Source: Clostridiales bacterium DTU089
GTDB taxonomy: Bacteria; Bacillota; Clostridia; Oscillospirales; Acutalibacteraceae
Assembly (NCBI GenBank): GCA_001513045.1
Contig: LFSB01000010.1
Coordinates: 33,900-97,899 of the forward strand
Direction of reading: 5' to 3'
Length of the DNA: 64,000 bases
The position numbers and the translations under genes are program-made. The notes under the pieces are model-generated. The model saw only the letters and a program-made list of their open reading frames with translations. It did no database searches and had not been told where the DNA came from. This document shows positions 4,346-56,755 of the stretch, piece by piece; within the stretch, counting starts at the first letter, position 1; the number at the start of each line of letters is the position of its first letter.

Positions 4346-5140
4346 TTAAAGTCTTCCGAGCTTTTTGAATTGGCTCGGCGACATATTTGCGCGCTCGGAA
4401 AAGCACTGATTGAAGCTTCTGACGCTGTTGAAGCCCACGCTGAACGCTATTTCGGATATGCTCATATCCGTTGAGCGTAAAAGAATGATGGCTTTGTCAA
4501 AGCGGAAATCCTTGAGATAGTCGGAAAAGCCTATTTTATCACCGGAATTAAGCACTCTGCTCAGGTGGGAGCGGTTGACGTTCAGCTCATCTGCGAGACT
4601 CTGAAGCGTGAGCGGATTTGAAAAATTTTCCTGCATATAGGTTATTGCGCTCGCAAACAGGTTGTAGCTCGATTCTTTCTCAATGTGAGTGAGCTCGTTT
4701 TTTTCAATAAAATCCGAGCACAGCAGATAGACGAACGCACTGAGTGTAATTGCGTCGTCACAGGGCTTTTCAACAAGATTTTCGGTTACAAGCTTATTTA
4801 TATCCGCATCGGGGCGGTAAGGGCTGCTTTTCGGCAGGCAGCCTGCAGTTCTGGAACAAAACAGAGGAACGAGCTCTCCGGGGAATATTATTGTGTATGA
4901 GTCGGAGTGCTCGGGAGTATAAATTGAGTGAAGATGGTTCGGGAAAATCAGAACGGCGTCTCCCTCAAGCAATTTTACGTTTTCGCCGTCGAGCGTGACA
5001 TTCAGACAGCCTCCGGCTACATATATATATTCAAAAGAGGTTTGCAAATGCAATCTGAAAACAGCATCGATTCCGCGCTGTCCGGTAAACTCAATGCCCT
5101 CCTTGAAAATTTTACGCTGACGTGCAATTCTTTTGTACAT
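4346..5140 (-). CDS. AraC-family transcriptional regulator (cupin sensor + HTH_18)
   Basis: The C-terminal part (LTLQSLADELNVNRSHLSRVL...SISEIAFSVGFNSVRSFNQCFSE) is the AraC double-HTH signature. AAGAGG SD sits 8 nt before the ATG at 5140. Divergent from the GH92-like gene. Confidence 0.85.
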   Translation of the reverse strand: MYKRIARQRKIFKEGIEFTGQRGIDAVFRLHLQTSFEYIYVAGGCLNVTLDGENVKLLEGDAVLIFPNHLHSIYTPEHSDSYTIIFPGELVPLFCSRTAGCLPKSSPYRPDADINKLVTENLVEKPCDDAITLSAFVYLLCSDFIEKNELTHIEKESSYNLFASAITYMQENFSNPLTLQSLADELNVNRSHLSRVLNSGDKIGFSDYLKDFRFDKAIILLRSTDMSISEIAFSVGFNSVRSFNQCFSERANMSPSQFKKLGRL

Positions 5141-5279
5141 CGGGTTCACCTCTTATCCATTATAATTAACTCGCAAAAATTATGCAACAAAAAAATCAAA
5201 AATGCAAATATTTTGCCATATGTGCTTGTCAATTGCGACATTTTTGCTTTACGGCGACTATTTCAAGGCGAAAACTCCT

Positions 5280-8961: not shown

Positions 8962-8993
8962 CAAACCGGAATTTGTGCGCGCACGCACAAATT
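8962..8993 (+). repeat. Short hairpin repeat H (copy 1)
   Basis: ACAAACCGGAATTTGTGCGC is shared 20/20 with 54554-54573. It forms AATTTGTGCG-CGCA-CGCACAAATT, a 10-bp stem. Confidence 0.7.
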
Positions 8994-9001
8994 ACAGTTT
9001 A

Positions 9002-9181
9002 TTCAAGTGATATGCCGACTTCGTCGGCGTGATATTCATGCCTTGCGACAAGAGTGATATTTCTCGCTGCGCTCGAAGTGATATTCTAATCGCGTCCAAA
9101 ACGCGCGAAGTGCATATCACTACCGAAGGTAATATCACGCGACGAAGTCGCATATAACTCGTGCTTGCGCGAATAGAACTG
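9002..9181 (+). repeat. Heptamer-hairpin structured element, copy A (candidate sRNA or structured DNA site)
   Basis: GTGATAT at 9007, 9029, 9054 and 9078, separated by hairpins. ATATCAC/ATATAAC at 9114, 9132 and 9152, also separated by hairpins. Same skeleton as 56471-56647. Confidence 0.85.
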
Positions 9182-9212
9182 AAAAACCGCCTTGCAAAGC
9201 AAGACGGTTTTT
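9182..9212. terminator. Bidirectional intrinsic terminator shared by element A and tRNA-Leu
   Basis: A5, CCGCCTTGC-AAA-GCAAGACGG, T5. The identical 30-mer recurs at 55459-55488. Confidence 0.75.
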
Positions 9213-9213
9213 C

Positions 9214-9300
9214 TGGTGCCGATGACCGGGCTTGAACCGGTACGATGTTGCCACCGAGGGATTTTAAGTCCCTTGCGTCTGCCAATTCCGCCACATCGGC
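9214..9300 (-). tRNA. tRNA-Leu (anticodon UAA), CCA encoded
   Basis: Reverse complement folds as a cloverleaf. Acceptor GCCGATG/CATCGGC, anticodon stem AGGGA/TCCCT with loop CTTAAAA, long variable arm, T-arm ACCGG-TTCAAGC-CCGGT, 3' ACCA. Confidence 0.92.
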
Positions 9301-55255: not shown

Positions 55256-55312
55256 TGTCAGTAGGGGGATATGAACCCGAAGCCGATTTTTGGGGTGGAT
55301 TCGTACCCTCAC
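55256..55312 (+). repeat. Direct repeat DR1 flanking element C
   Basis: TGTCAGT..GGATATGAACCCGAAGCCGATTTTTGGGGTGGATTCGTACCCTCAC, about 88% identical by eye to 55490-55549. Confidence 0.8.
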
Positions 55313-55322
55313 AAAGGAACGA

Positions 55323-55455
55323 ATGAAATATTGCTGTCGCAATATGAAATAATCCTTGCGGATTATGAAATTTCCTGCTTTCGCAGAAAGTGAAATAAAA
55401 TTTGCCCCTTATGTGCCGCAGCATATTTTACTTGCCCGCGTGGCAAATTTCATTG
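55323..55455 (+). repeat. Heptamer-hairpin structured element, divergent copy C
   Basis: (A/G)TGAAAT at 55323, 55344, 55365 and 55390, separated by hairpins ATTGC-TGTC-GCAAT and AATCC-TTGC-GGATT (same loops as copy B). Long-range helix AAATTTGCC/GGCAAATTT. Confidence 0.75.
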
Positions 55456-55488
55456 AAAAAACCGCCTTGCAAAGCAAGACGGTTTTTT
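55456..55488. terminator. Bidirectional intrinsic terminator of element C
   Basis: Same CCGCCTTGC-AAA-GCAAGACGG hairpin as at 9187-9207, flanked by A6 and T6. Confidence 0.7.
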
Positions 55489-55489
55489 C

Positions 55490-55549
55490 TGGCAGTGTAA
55501 GTGGATATGAACCCGAAGCCAATTTTTTTGGGTGGATTCGTACCCTCAC
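55490..55549 (+). repeat. Direct repeat DR2 flanking element C
   Basis: Second copy of DR1. It occupies the position that a tRNA occupies next to copies A and B. Confidence 0.8.
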
Positions 55550-55588: not shown

Positions 55589-55999
55589 TTAACACATAAC
55601 CGGTTTCCACGCAAAGGGCAATAAATCACTTGCTTTTACTTTTATCAATTCGCCGTATTCATCATTTACAATGACTTTTATATCGGGACAATATTCAAAT
55701 AACATTTGACGGCAATTCCCGCAAGGTGAAATTACACAATTAAGATGTTTCTCATGGACAGCGACAATGGTGTCAAAATCTCTTTCGCCTGCCGAAATAG
55801 CAATACCCATTGTTATGTATTCCGCACAAGAACCATGGATACCGTCACAATTTACTCCTTTATAAACATGCCCGTTGCGACATAGTAATGCGCATCCGAC
55901 TGTATGATTATATATACCATCATCAAAATTCTGTTCTAATATATTTAGGCCTTCCTTTATTAGTTCCCTGTCTTTTTCGGTTATTGTATATTTCTCCAC
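55589..55999 (-). CDS. Small cytidine-deaminase-fold protein, blasticidin-S deaminase (Bsr/BSD)-like
   Basis: Zn ligands (H/C)AE (GSCAEY) and PCGNC. The FDTIVAV block and overall length of 136 aa resemble Bsr as I remember it. GTG start with GAGGAG SD. Confidence 0.75.
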   Translation of the reverse strand: MEKYTITEKDRELIKEGLNILEQNFDDGIYNHTVGCALLCRNGHVYKGVNCDGIHGSCAEYITMGIAISAGERDFDTIVAVHEKHLNCVISPCGNCRQMLFEYCPDIKVIVNDEYGELIKVKASDLLPFAWKPVMC

Positions 56000-56069: not shown

Positions 56070-56426
56070 TCAACATTTGCTTTTCTTTGCGGTGTTGATG
56101 GAAGCAATGAGCATACGGCGAATTGATCCGCAGGTGCTTTGTAGTGATTGATATTGCTCGTTTGGTATATAGCCGGTCTCCGAAAGCAACTCAAGCCAAT
56201 ACTCGGTTTCATAACACTCTTTTTGCGCGATTTCAAGCTTCGATATGAAATCTTTTGTTCCTTGCGCATATTGTGCTTCATGAAGATTTGCGCCGATTGA
56301 TGTTCCGGAACGCAAAAGTTGATTGGTCAGTACCGATTCCCGTTGATTTGCTTTTATATCTCTGCAAAGATAGACGATTTGCTTTGCAAATTCTTTGGCT
56401 TTATTCCTTAAAATGCTATCAGCCAC
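56070..56426 (-). CDS. Four-helix-bundle protein (23S rRNA intervening-sequence protein family)
   Basis: LLRSGTSIGANLHEAQYAQGTKDFISKLEIAQKECYETEYWLELL is the family signature. Confidence 0.78.
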   Translation of the reverse strand: MADSILRNKAKEFAKQIVYLCRDIKANQRESVLTNQLLRSGTSIGANLHEAQYAQGTKDFISKLEIAQKECYETEYWLELLSETGYIPNEQYQSLQSTCGSIRRMLIASINTAKKSKC

Positions 56427-56470
56427 AAGTATCACCTCTTTAATAAAGTATAGTATAAATCTTTAGCTCT

Positions 56471-56647
56471 GTAAAGTGATATGCCGCTGTCGCGGCGTGA
56501 TATTCTTGCCTTGCGGCAAGAGTGATATTTCTCGCTGCGCTCGAAGTGATATTCTATTCGCCTCTCACGCCCGCAGGCATATCACTCGGCGTAGCCGAAT
56601 ATCACGCCCCAAAGGGGCATATAACTCGCCGCAGGCGAATAGAACTG
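56471..56647 (+). repeat. Heptamer-hairpin structured element, copy B (candidate sRNA or structured DNA site)
   Basis: GTGATAT at 56476, 56497, 56522 and 56546. ATATCAC/ATATAAC at 56579, 56599 and 56619. Hairpins lie between every pair of heptamers. Confidence 0.85.
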
Positions 56648-56680
56648 AAAAAAGCACATCGCATTGCGATGTGCTTTTTT
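56648..56680. terminator. Bidirectional intrinsic terminator shared by element B and tRNA-Gly
   Basis: A6, GCACATCGC-ATT-GCGATGTGC, T6, ending 1 nt from the tRNA CCA end. Confidence 0.8.
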
Positions 56681-56681
56681 C

Positions 56682-56755
56682 TGGAGCGGAAGAGGGGAAT
56701 CGAACCCCCGCTATCTGCTTGGGAAGCAGAAGTTCTGCCATTAAACTACTCCCGC
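56682..56755 (-). tRNA. tRNA-Gly (anticodon CCC), CCA encoded
   Basis: Reverse complement is GCGGGAG-TA-GTTTAATGGCAGAAC-T-TCTGC-TTCCCAA-GCAGA-TAGC-GGGGG-TTCGATT-CCCCT-CTTCCGC-T-CCA, a 74-nt cloverleaf. Confidence 0.92.

Follow-up and report, generated by a model that had tools for sequence, protein, structure and literature searches.

Gut-1 (Rfam RF01706) was catalogued in 2010 by Weinberg et al. as a candidate non-coding RNA, and the note devoted to it places it in human-gut environmental sequence only, with no sequenced organism (PMC2864571). We have analyzed a stretch of 64,000 nucleotides from Clostridiales bacterium DTU089 (contig LFSB01000010.1, positions 33,900–97,899; hereafter the window), in which a first-pass annotation had flagged an array of short hairpins separated by fixed heptamers next to a tRNA-Leu gene (copy A, 9007–9213). 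The flagged element is a copy of this already catalogued orphan motif and not a new RNA. It is multi-copy, with three copies (A, B and C) in 64 kb, and copy B lies beside a gene for a four-helix-bundle, Avd-like protein of the PF05635/TIGR02436 family ('23S rRNA IVS protein'). We propose, with a probability of roughly 0.4, that the arrays are a multi-site hairpin ligand, probably RNA, of this protein.

Repetitive extragenic palindromes (REPs), bacterial interspersed mosaic elements (BIMEs) and the REPtrons of Proteobacteria, in which genes for RAYT, a Y1/HUH transposase, are flanked by REPs, are close relatives in layout. Like the present element, they are extragenic palindromes that occur in many copies and are flanked by a short conserved motif; they are arranged in inverted pairs after genes or between convergent genes, and in REPtrons one protein gene stands beside a repeat while other repeats are dispersed. 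The same dispersal of inverted-pair palindromes is seen here: besides the three copies in the window, contigs are broken inside copy A in two independent Logan assemblies, and at least several metagenome-assembled genomes (MAGs) were matched twice in the pattern scan described below. Unlike those of REPs, however, the hairpins here are position-specific rather than near-identical, within a fixed overall architecture of ∼175 nt, and the linked protein is a four-helix bundle without known nuclease activity rather than a Y1/HUH transposase. Intervening sequences (IVSs) of 23S rRNA that carry a PF05635 open reading frame likewise place such a gene on a stable-RNA transcription unit, bracketed by strong hairpins, but inside rRNA, whereas the cassette found here follows tRNA genes and terminators. 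A further precedent comes from diversity-generating retroelements (DGRs), where the Avd pentamer, seen by cryo-EM, clamps an 11-bp RNA stem-loop, with flipped-out bases at the stem foot inserted between protomers (bioRxiv 10.1101/2023.10.23.563531). There a PF05635-family pentamer binds a nucleic-acid hairpin, as its relative may do here; the DGR spacer RNA offers one site, the arrays many in tandem. No reverse transcriptase domain was found in the window genes scanned around A and B or in the commonest neighbor families, and no template or variable repeat was noticed.

The identity of the element was established with the Gut-1 model of Rfam 15 (gathering cut-off 50 bits), over the full length of which (positions 1–77) cmscan aligned both arms of copy A, and copy B. 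The right arm of copy B (56574–56647) matches on the minus strand with 66.8 bits and its left arm (56474–56557) on the plus strand with 38.9 bits. The right arm of copy A (9109–9181) also matches on the minus strand, at 49.1 bits, 0.9 under the cut-off, with E-values of 7.7e-9 in a local search and 1.2e-6 over the whole window; its left arm (9005–9089, plus strand) scores 35.3 bits. Copy C, at 44.2 bits (E 2e-5), is under the cut-off as well. Since both arms match one model on opposite strands, the element is an inward-pointing inverted pair of Gut-1 units. Copies A and B display the three consecutive hairpins, A-U and U-G closure and 3-nt linkers inside GUGAWAU heptamers that characterize the model, and in the forward sense invariant A-U and U-G pairs can close each hairpin in the same way. 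Gut-1 is typed in Rfam as a small RNA (sRNA) gene; the computed signs here are mixed, with no G-U excess, no conserved promoter and a terminator present.

The 2010 seed alignment already displays both arms and the tRNA context, although only one arm was modeled, on the strand opposite to that read in the first-pass annotation. Seed BAAZ01025322 runs from a tRNA 3′ end through a terminator, CAGUUAUAUUCGCC, three hairpins with GUGAUAU and GCGAAUAUAAUAUCAC into the reverse arm. This is the order found here (tRNA, terminator, CAGUUAUAUUCGCC, two arms), with the same tandem three-hairpin unit and GUGAWAU-type linkers, and the far end of the seed matches a locus type linked to PF05635 (L384). The conserved segments had first been taken for single-stranded motifs of one RNA. 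This is doubtful for a dyad of Gut-1 units on opposite strands, both of which fold equally: on either strand, A and B fold far better than shuffled sequences (z −7.7 to −9.9). The 2010 note and the literature searched contain no description of an inverted second arm, a long-range helix or a terminal hairpin, and no mention of multi-copy status, named Clostridia hosts or a PF05635 link. To a motif that had so far been given neither a function nor a host nor a partner, the present analysis adds named hosts, the full architecture and a candidate protein partner. The partner belongs to a very large family (TIGR02436/PF05635), of which the DGR accessory protein Avd is the sole understood member.

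Copies A and B (56476–56681) share a common skeleton. Four GTGATAT heptamers (H1–H4), each with a hairpin after it, are followed by a long-range helix (P4), three to four hairpins with ATAnnAC joins, a terminator hairpin (P9) and a convergent tRNA gene. The window contains 20 occurrences of GTGATAT where 5.7 would be expected, and none of 100 shuffles reaches 20. In copy A the four heptamers start at 9007, 9029, 9054 and 9078 on the plus strand. The left arm (9007–9084, plus strand) contains the GC-rich palindromic spacers P1 (9014–9028), P2 (9036–9053) and P3 (9061–9077), of which P2 is degraded by two mismatches; the left-arm stems covary in the alignment presented below. The 5′ strand of P4, TTCTAATCGCG (9084–9094, plus strand), pairs with CGCGAATAGAA (9168–9178) apart from one A-A mismatch. 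The right arm (9103–9181, plus strand) consists of P5 (9103–9113, with a C-GAA-G loop), ATATCAC (9114–9120), P6 (TACCGAAGGTA, 9121–9131), a second ATATCAC (9132–9138), P7 (GCGACGAAGTCGC, 9139–9151), ATATAAC (9152–9158), the local hairpin P8 (TCGTGCTTGCGCGA, 9159–9172), ATAGAAC (9173–9179) and TG, the 3′ strand of P4 overlapping P8 and the last heptamer. P9 (9181–9213) is a bidirectional intrinsic terminator, composed of an A-run, a 15-bp stem and a T-run, and is common to the element and to tRNA-Leu(taa) (9214–9300, minus strand). The latter abuts P9 and is convergent with the plus-strand reading of A, i.e. it lies upstream of A on the minus strand. To the left of copy A (8970–9006) there is a 10-bp hairpin, AATTTGTGCG..CGCACAAATT, followed by ACAGTTTATTC. 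This is a mirror image of how the element ends on the right (GAATAGAACTG plus hairpin), so that the dyad symmetry of copy A seems to extend to the hairpins that flank it.

Copy B, the 'master' copy (56476–56681, plus strand), has the same set of heptamers, with H1–H4 at 56476, 56497, 56522 and 56546 and the right-side heptamers at 56579, 56599 and 56619. Its P4 is formed by 56552–56562 and 56635–56645, its right arm spans 56579–56645, and P9 occupies 56647–56681. With tRNA-Gly(ccc) at 56682–56755 (minus strand), the minus-strand order is tRNA, P9, array B and PF05635 gene. The third spacer, TTCTCGCTGCGCTCGAA (9061–9077 in A, 56529–56545 in B), and the tail, GCGAATAGAACTGAAAAA (9169–9186 and 56636–56653), are identical between the two copies. 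These identities, together with those of the heptamers, had been reported in the first-pass annotation along with the common skeleton, the convergent-tRNA context, four pairs of hairpins differing between A and B and the degraded second hairpin of A. The coordinates bear out each of them, and we add only the A-A mismatch in P4 of A, a T-G wobble in the last hairpin of A (TCGTG-CTTG-CGCGA) and the continuation of the element into P9. Copy C (55323–55490, plus strand) is more divergent, with three ATGAAAT and one GTGAAAT separated by hairpin spacers, P4 formed by AAATTTGCC/GGCAAATTT, P8 by TTGCC/GGCAA, and ATTTCAT; a 25-nt core of P9 is identical between A and C. Direct repeats of 52 nt bracket copy C (55261–55312 and 55497–55549, ∼92% identical, 236 nt apart). 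They have the look of a tRNA T-arm, yet gave no tRNA call, and their arrangement is reminiscent of a target duplication or of a partial duplication in tandem.

Conservation of the fold was assessed in an alignment of 45 full-length elements from different genomes and species, using an RNAalifold consensus structure, 500 shuffles and slid controls. Standard pairs fill 97.4% of the pair cells, compared with 83.8% in the shuffles, and both-sided changes affect 21 pairs and 200 cells; none of the 500 shuffles reaches these values, and the slid controls are 30–61% paired. P4 is paired in 44 of the 45 elements, with a variable position that is A-U in 20, C-G in 13, U-A in 11 and broken in one. The covariation of the long-range helix noted from A and B alone is seen across the 45 species, with three pair types. 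The first part of the consensus reads TT.A, three GTGATAT-hairpin units, GTGATAT, T.TATTCGCC, AAAACT, CGCGAAGCG and AATATCAC; the second part continues with TCGGCG.AAGCCGA, ATATCAC, TGCGAAGCA, ATATAAC, TCGCC-loop-GGCGA, ATA.AAC, TG and the terminal hairpin. Each hairpin sequence is specific to its position and conserved across families. As had been argued from the two copies, the array is a folded nucleic acid maintained by selection and not a decaying duplicate. Covariation, however good, does not alone distinguish action as RNA from action as DNA.

P8 competes with P4 for one 3′ strand, a feature already recognized in copy A. P8 is nearly invariant within the GTGATAT class. In the GTGAAAT class both pairings have changed together (AAATCC/GGATTT and GAAATAAATCC/GGATTTATTTC), and the competition is found again, with different sequences, in a GCTAAAT variant (L461) and in the ATGAAAT copy C. 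As the two pairings change together between heptamer classes, their competition is conserved; as P8 hardly varies within a class, only the cross-class comparison supports the idea of a switch, which we regard as a structural possibility. The left-arm heptamers are invariant, whereas the first position of the right arm is ATATCAC in 23 and ATACCAC in 12 of the 45 elements, with others in the remainder; the two arms are therefore not equivalent. Folds of single sequences pair heptamer with heptamer (GUGAUAU with AUAUCAC, in stacked four-way junctions). We rejected this pairing as a conserved feature because the right-arm heptamers (ATACCAC in 12 of 45, ATATAAC, ATAGAAC, ATAAAAC) vary without compensation.

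A pattern scan of one genome per species for three GTGATAT with gaps of 10–22 nt returned at least 80 loci, and the neighbor counts that follow are among the matches listed. All but ∼4 of these loci are from gut or rumen Clostridia, either MAGs or isolates, and the hosts include Oscillospiraceae, Acutalibacteraceae, Christensenellaceae, Ruminococcus, Roseburia and Butyrivibrio. The P9 hairpin travels with the element in other genomes. The downstream neighbor is convergent at 47 loci versus 16. Pfam scans of 68 upstream and 62 downstream neighbors revealed heterogeneous genes on both sides, with no transposase among the 25 commonest of the 75 and 88 families matched. The constant position upstream of functionally coherent genes that is typical of riboswitches is not seen, most downstream genes being convergent. 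The convergent-tRNA context emphasized for A and B does recur, in 16 of 86 matches, always convergent and with many different tRNAs, but at ∼1 in 5 it is not general. Given this frequency and the heterogeneous neighbors, a regulator of tRNA-Leu/Gly, as envisaged earlier, or of any fixed neighbor is unlikely. Searches for an empty site gave no relatives of a 265-aa neighbor in metagenomes, and exact-protein look-ups returned only the same genome or contigs ending inside the element.

The only recurrent family among the 68 upstream neighbors is PF05635, found five times, always divergent and 40–50 nt from the first heptamer. The window member (56070–56435, minus strand) starts 40 nt from H1 of copy B, scores 112 bits against TIGR02436 and matches the pentameric structure PDB 2RLD at E 2e-30. 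The five proteins are 68–73% identical and come from different Clostridia families. We searched metagenomes with their alignment and kept the best 80 relatives (58–84% identity), among which an unbiased 7-mer test detected an array of at least three heptamer-palindrome units in 36 of 42 distinct upstream regions (≥150 nt); the other six look partial by eye. The heptamer varies as the protein diverges (GTTATAT, GTGTTAT, GCTAAAT, GTTATGA, ATGATAT, GTGAAAT), while the architecture is kept. Because the flanking genes differ between these loci, the conserved pair is the gene plus the array. A tRNA gene is located upstream in 22 of the 36 linked loci, co-directional with the PF05635 gene in all 22 and representing at least eight anticodons, with tRNA-Gly(ccc) at copy B a ninth; usually, the tRNA, the terminator, the array and the PF05635 gene follow one another on one strand. 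This near-universal pairing of motif and PF05635 behind tRNA genes is a new lead, not found in the literature searched. Viewed from the element, only ∼1 array in 14 has a PF05635 gene, as would be expected if each genome held a single gene-linked copy and many orphans. Copy A belongs to the orphans. The PF05635 protein of the window has no match among the PADLOC defense models.

The number of units at such loci is highly variable: L452 (1–350) carries 16 copies of ATAACAC with a 13-nt hairpin, and L459 (1–448) 12 copies of AATGATATT with short hairpins. L418 is without two right-arm units of L384, the same locus from a different human-gut sample, and the missing stretch is bounded by two ATATCAC heptamers; in L404 and L397 the array is rearranged in other ways. 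These differences represent either strain polymorphism in unit number or assembly artefacts at a repeat.

We suggest the following model. The element is modular, built from inverted Gut-1 units, each a run of short GC-rich hairpins split by a fixed heptamer (GTGATAT in this lineage), with a long-range helix closing one arm and a terminator hairpin ending the whole. One copy per genome, here B, would reside beside the PF05635 gene; the others, here A and C, are dispersed at 3′ ends of genes and tRNAs. An Avd-like protein could read sites of this kind, hairpins with a constant heptamer at the flank, and the hairpin-heptamer units may serve as repeated sites for the PF05635 protein. The likeliest active form would be RNA on the minus strand of the window, produced when transcription of the tRNA or another upstream gene runs through the terminator, in which case the array might be a protein-loaded structure in a 3′ trailer or a 5′ leader. 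In ∼9 of 28 distinct linked loci the array and the start codon are only 13–30 nt apart, and transcription of the gene there has to pass through the array. Possible roles are auto-control or titration of the protein, or a barrier or handle for read-through transcripts. That Gut-1 arrays are the cognate multi-site ligands of this PF05635/TIGR02436 subfamily, and that the cassette behind tRNA genes seeds the orphan arrays, we advance tentatively, at a little short of even odds. If correct, it would provide a first partner outside diversity-generating retroelements for both an orphan RNA motif and a large orphan protein family, and a functional link could explain the occurrence of PF05635 genes beside stable-RNA genes.

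Several observations weigh against this proposal, and many of them would be expected if the element acted as a REP/BIME-like repeat at the level of DNA. In that alternative, which we consider rather unlikely but the strongest of those weighed here, extruded or single-stranded hairpins or duplex heptamers would be recognized by the PF05635 protein or another factor; the gene-side array would be an operator, and the dispersed copies would be maintained, or would spread, next to terminators and in the 3′ flanks of tRNA genes. The stems are nearly pure Watson-Crick: the left arm (191 distinct spacers) has 1094 Watson-Crick, 10 G-T, 18 A-C and 11 other pairs, the right arm (62 spacers) 294, 4, 2 and 3, respectively, and the terminal hairpin 502, 1, 3 and 4. 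With ∼1% G-T versus 1.4% A-C in the stems, neither strand is favored, and the assignment of a strand from G-U versus A-C counts was abandoned, as neither the hairpins nor the terminal hairpin show a bias. Such composition is unusual for an RNA made from a single strand and agrees with a constraint that acts on DNA or on the two strands alike, as do the dyad architecture and the equal folding of the two strands. The loops are biased in a mirror-symmetric manner, on the plus strand TTC, TTGC, TGC and TAC in the left arm and GAA, GTA, GTAA and GCAA in the right (commonest right-arm spacer tGCGAAGCa), so that the outward-reading strand of either arm carries C-GNA-G or C-GNNA-G loops. As DNA, mini-hairpins of this type are extraordinarily stable, and their stability as RNA is much lower (PMC13037366). 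Many hairpins here, e.g. GCGAAGC, CCGAAGG and GGCGTAAGCC, share the loop and closing type of the DNA mini-hairpins d(GCGNAGC)/d(GCGNNAGC) at single-strand initiation sites (PMC13037366), but unlike these they are not found in the context of a replication origin or a primase. Selection for short hairpins of very high stability may be all that the resemblance reflects.

The promoters of the linked genes point in the same direction. A near-consensus promoter is present between H1 and the start codon in 18 of the 28 distinct linked loci, with the −35 typically abutting H1, as does the promoter-like site of the window gene (TTTACA-17-TATACT, 56475–56447). This looks like the arrangement of a DNA operator. 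Also against the proposed ligand role, the window holds two heptamer classes (GTGATAT and ATGAAAT) but one PF05635 gene, and the parallel divergence of protein and heptamer could simply reflect shared descent. In the 45-element alignment the 30 nt next to the first heptamer hold no conserved −10 or −35, and neither flank has a conserved promoter; terminators adjoin many copies at both ends, and many copies begin ∼12 nt past an upstream terminator. The multiple copies, the contig breaks, the convergent 3′-end location, the 52-nt repeats around copy C and the difference in unit number between L418 and L384 would also suit a DNA-level repeat. Against it, no transposase, recombinase or HUH gene is linked to the element among the neighbor families, the retention of position-specific hairpins across families misfits a recent burst of identical copies, and the arms are not equivalent. 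In addition, the structure that we found of a PF05635-family protein bound to nucleic acid is an RNA complex (bioRxiv 10.1101/2023.10.23.563531), and the ∼9 loci mentioned above require the array to be inside the transcript of the gene. We favor an RNA ligand of the PF05635 protein over a DNA repeat.

A stand-alone sRNA from the plus strand, with its own promoter, a shared terminator and the P8/P4 competition as a conformational switch, follows the view taken in the first-pass annotation and appears improbable. It would account for the invariance of the left-arm heptamers and for the recurrence of the competing pairings in three other heptamer classes. A hairpin and T-run always stand 3′ of the array on the plus strand, even in variants with a left arm only (L130, L141, L150, L183 and L456), and one-sided changes in P4 are mostly G-U compatible on that strand (8 versus 3). 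However, the lack of a conserved −10/−35 near H1 tells against it, and the individual copies agree: B has no plus-strand promoter-like site, and A only a weak 9/12 match with a hairpin after it. Many copies start ∼12 nt past an upstream terminator, and the element shows neither a conserved pocket of the ligand type nor a fixed gene under its control; the near-invariance of P8 within a class and the multiple copies are further difficulties. Two candidate sigma-70 promoter motifs, the minus-strand central TAnAAT and GTGATATT, which resembles an extended −10, were not supported by the scan. Finally, it is very unlikely that the arrays are a protein-independent backstop whose hairpins stop read-through or 3′ exonucleases at convergent gene ends, the heptamers being incidental, because, despite their location between convergent units, where a terminator flanks them on one side or on both, the terminator-like rating of the forward hairpins of copy B in the pattern scan and some neighbors from usually highly expressed families (GroEL, GAPDH and PPDK, judged by family alone), this leaves the invariant heptamer, the conserved long-range helix and the strict PF05635 link unexplained, and the hairpins of the GTGAAAT class are without U-rich tails.

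Other known heptamer- or hairpin-bearing sites were considered and rejected. Box A of P1-type parS is the heptamer ATTTCAC. The GTGAAAT/ATTTCAC heptamers thus recall a ParB-binding site, but the scanned window genes are ordinary cellular genes without replication or partition functions, no ParB is among the neighbor families listed, and a search of plasmids and phages gave 0 matches among 72,556 plasmids and a single match among 50,697 phage records. A phage cos or pac site was set aside since three viral scans contained only ∼7 true arrays. One of these, on viral contig L025 (IMGVR_UViG_3300031867_000663, 4998–5240), is a two-armed array of the GTGAAAT class that scores 61.9 bits against Gut-1; it is located ∼90 nt upstream of a terminase large-subunit-like gene and is followed by four tandem GTAACTTGCCG. 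An origin of replication was discarded as well, the match being a single perfect 9-mer DnaA box, TTATCCACA, with no cluster. In a Christensenellaceae-type subfamily (L164, L176, L186 and L201) this 9-mer is situated at the outer end of the array beside a terminator-like hairpin.

Directly after the PF05635 gene of the window lies a gene for a 136-aa deaminase-like protein of cytidine/deoxycytidylate type (55589–55999, minus strand; PF00383, E 7e-8). The same gene stands after PF05635 in a Roseburia sp. (L128), whereas three other linked loci lack it there. Directly upstream of ∼12–15 of ∼82 arrays, ∼170–200 nt upstream of the first heptamer, is a second conserved non-coding unit (L125, L155, L160, L169, L184, L187, L190, L135, L162, L179 and L185, and in reversed orientation L168, L182 and L191). 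No Rfam family matches this ∼170-nt unit, whether at the gathering threshold or at E≤1. Its approximate sequence is ...GGTGNTGTYCTTANCGGAGAA ... GCATTTG-loop-CAAATGC ... GGGC-loop-GCCC, with an AG-rich terminator-like hairpin at its end, and the protein genes flanking it are varied. At one further locus (L166, 590–660), the array is 54 nt upstream of, and divergent from, a NikA/MobC-like mobilization gene, a position typical of an origin of transfer.

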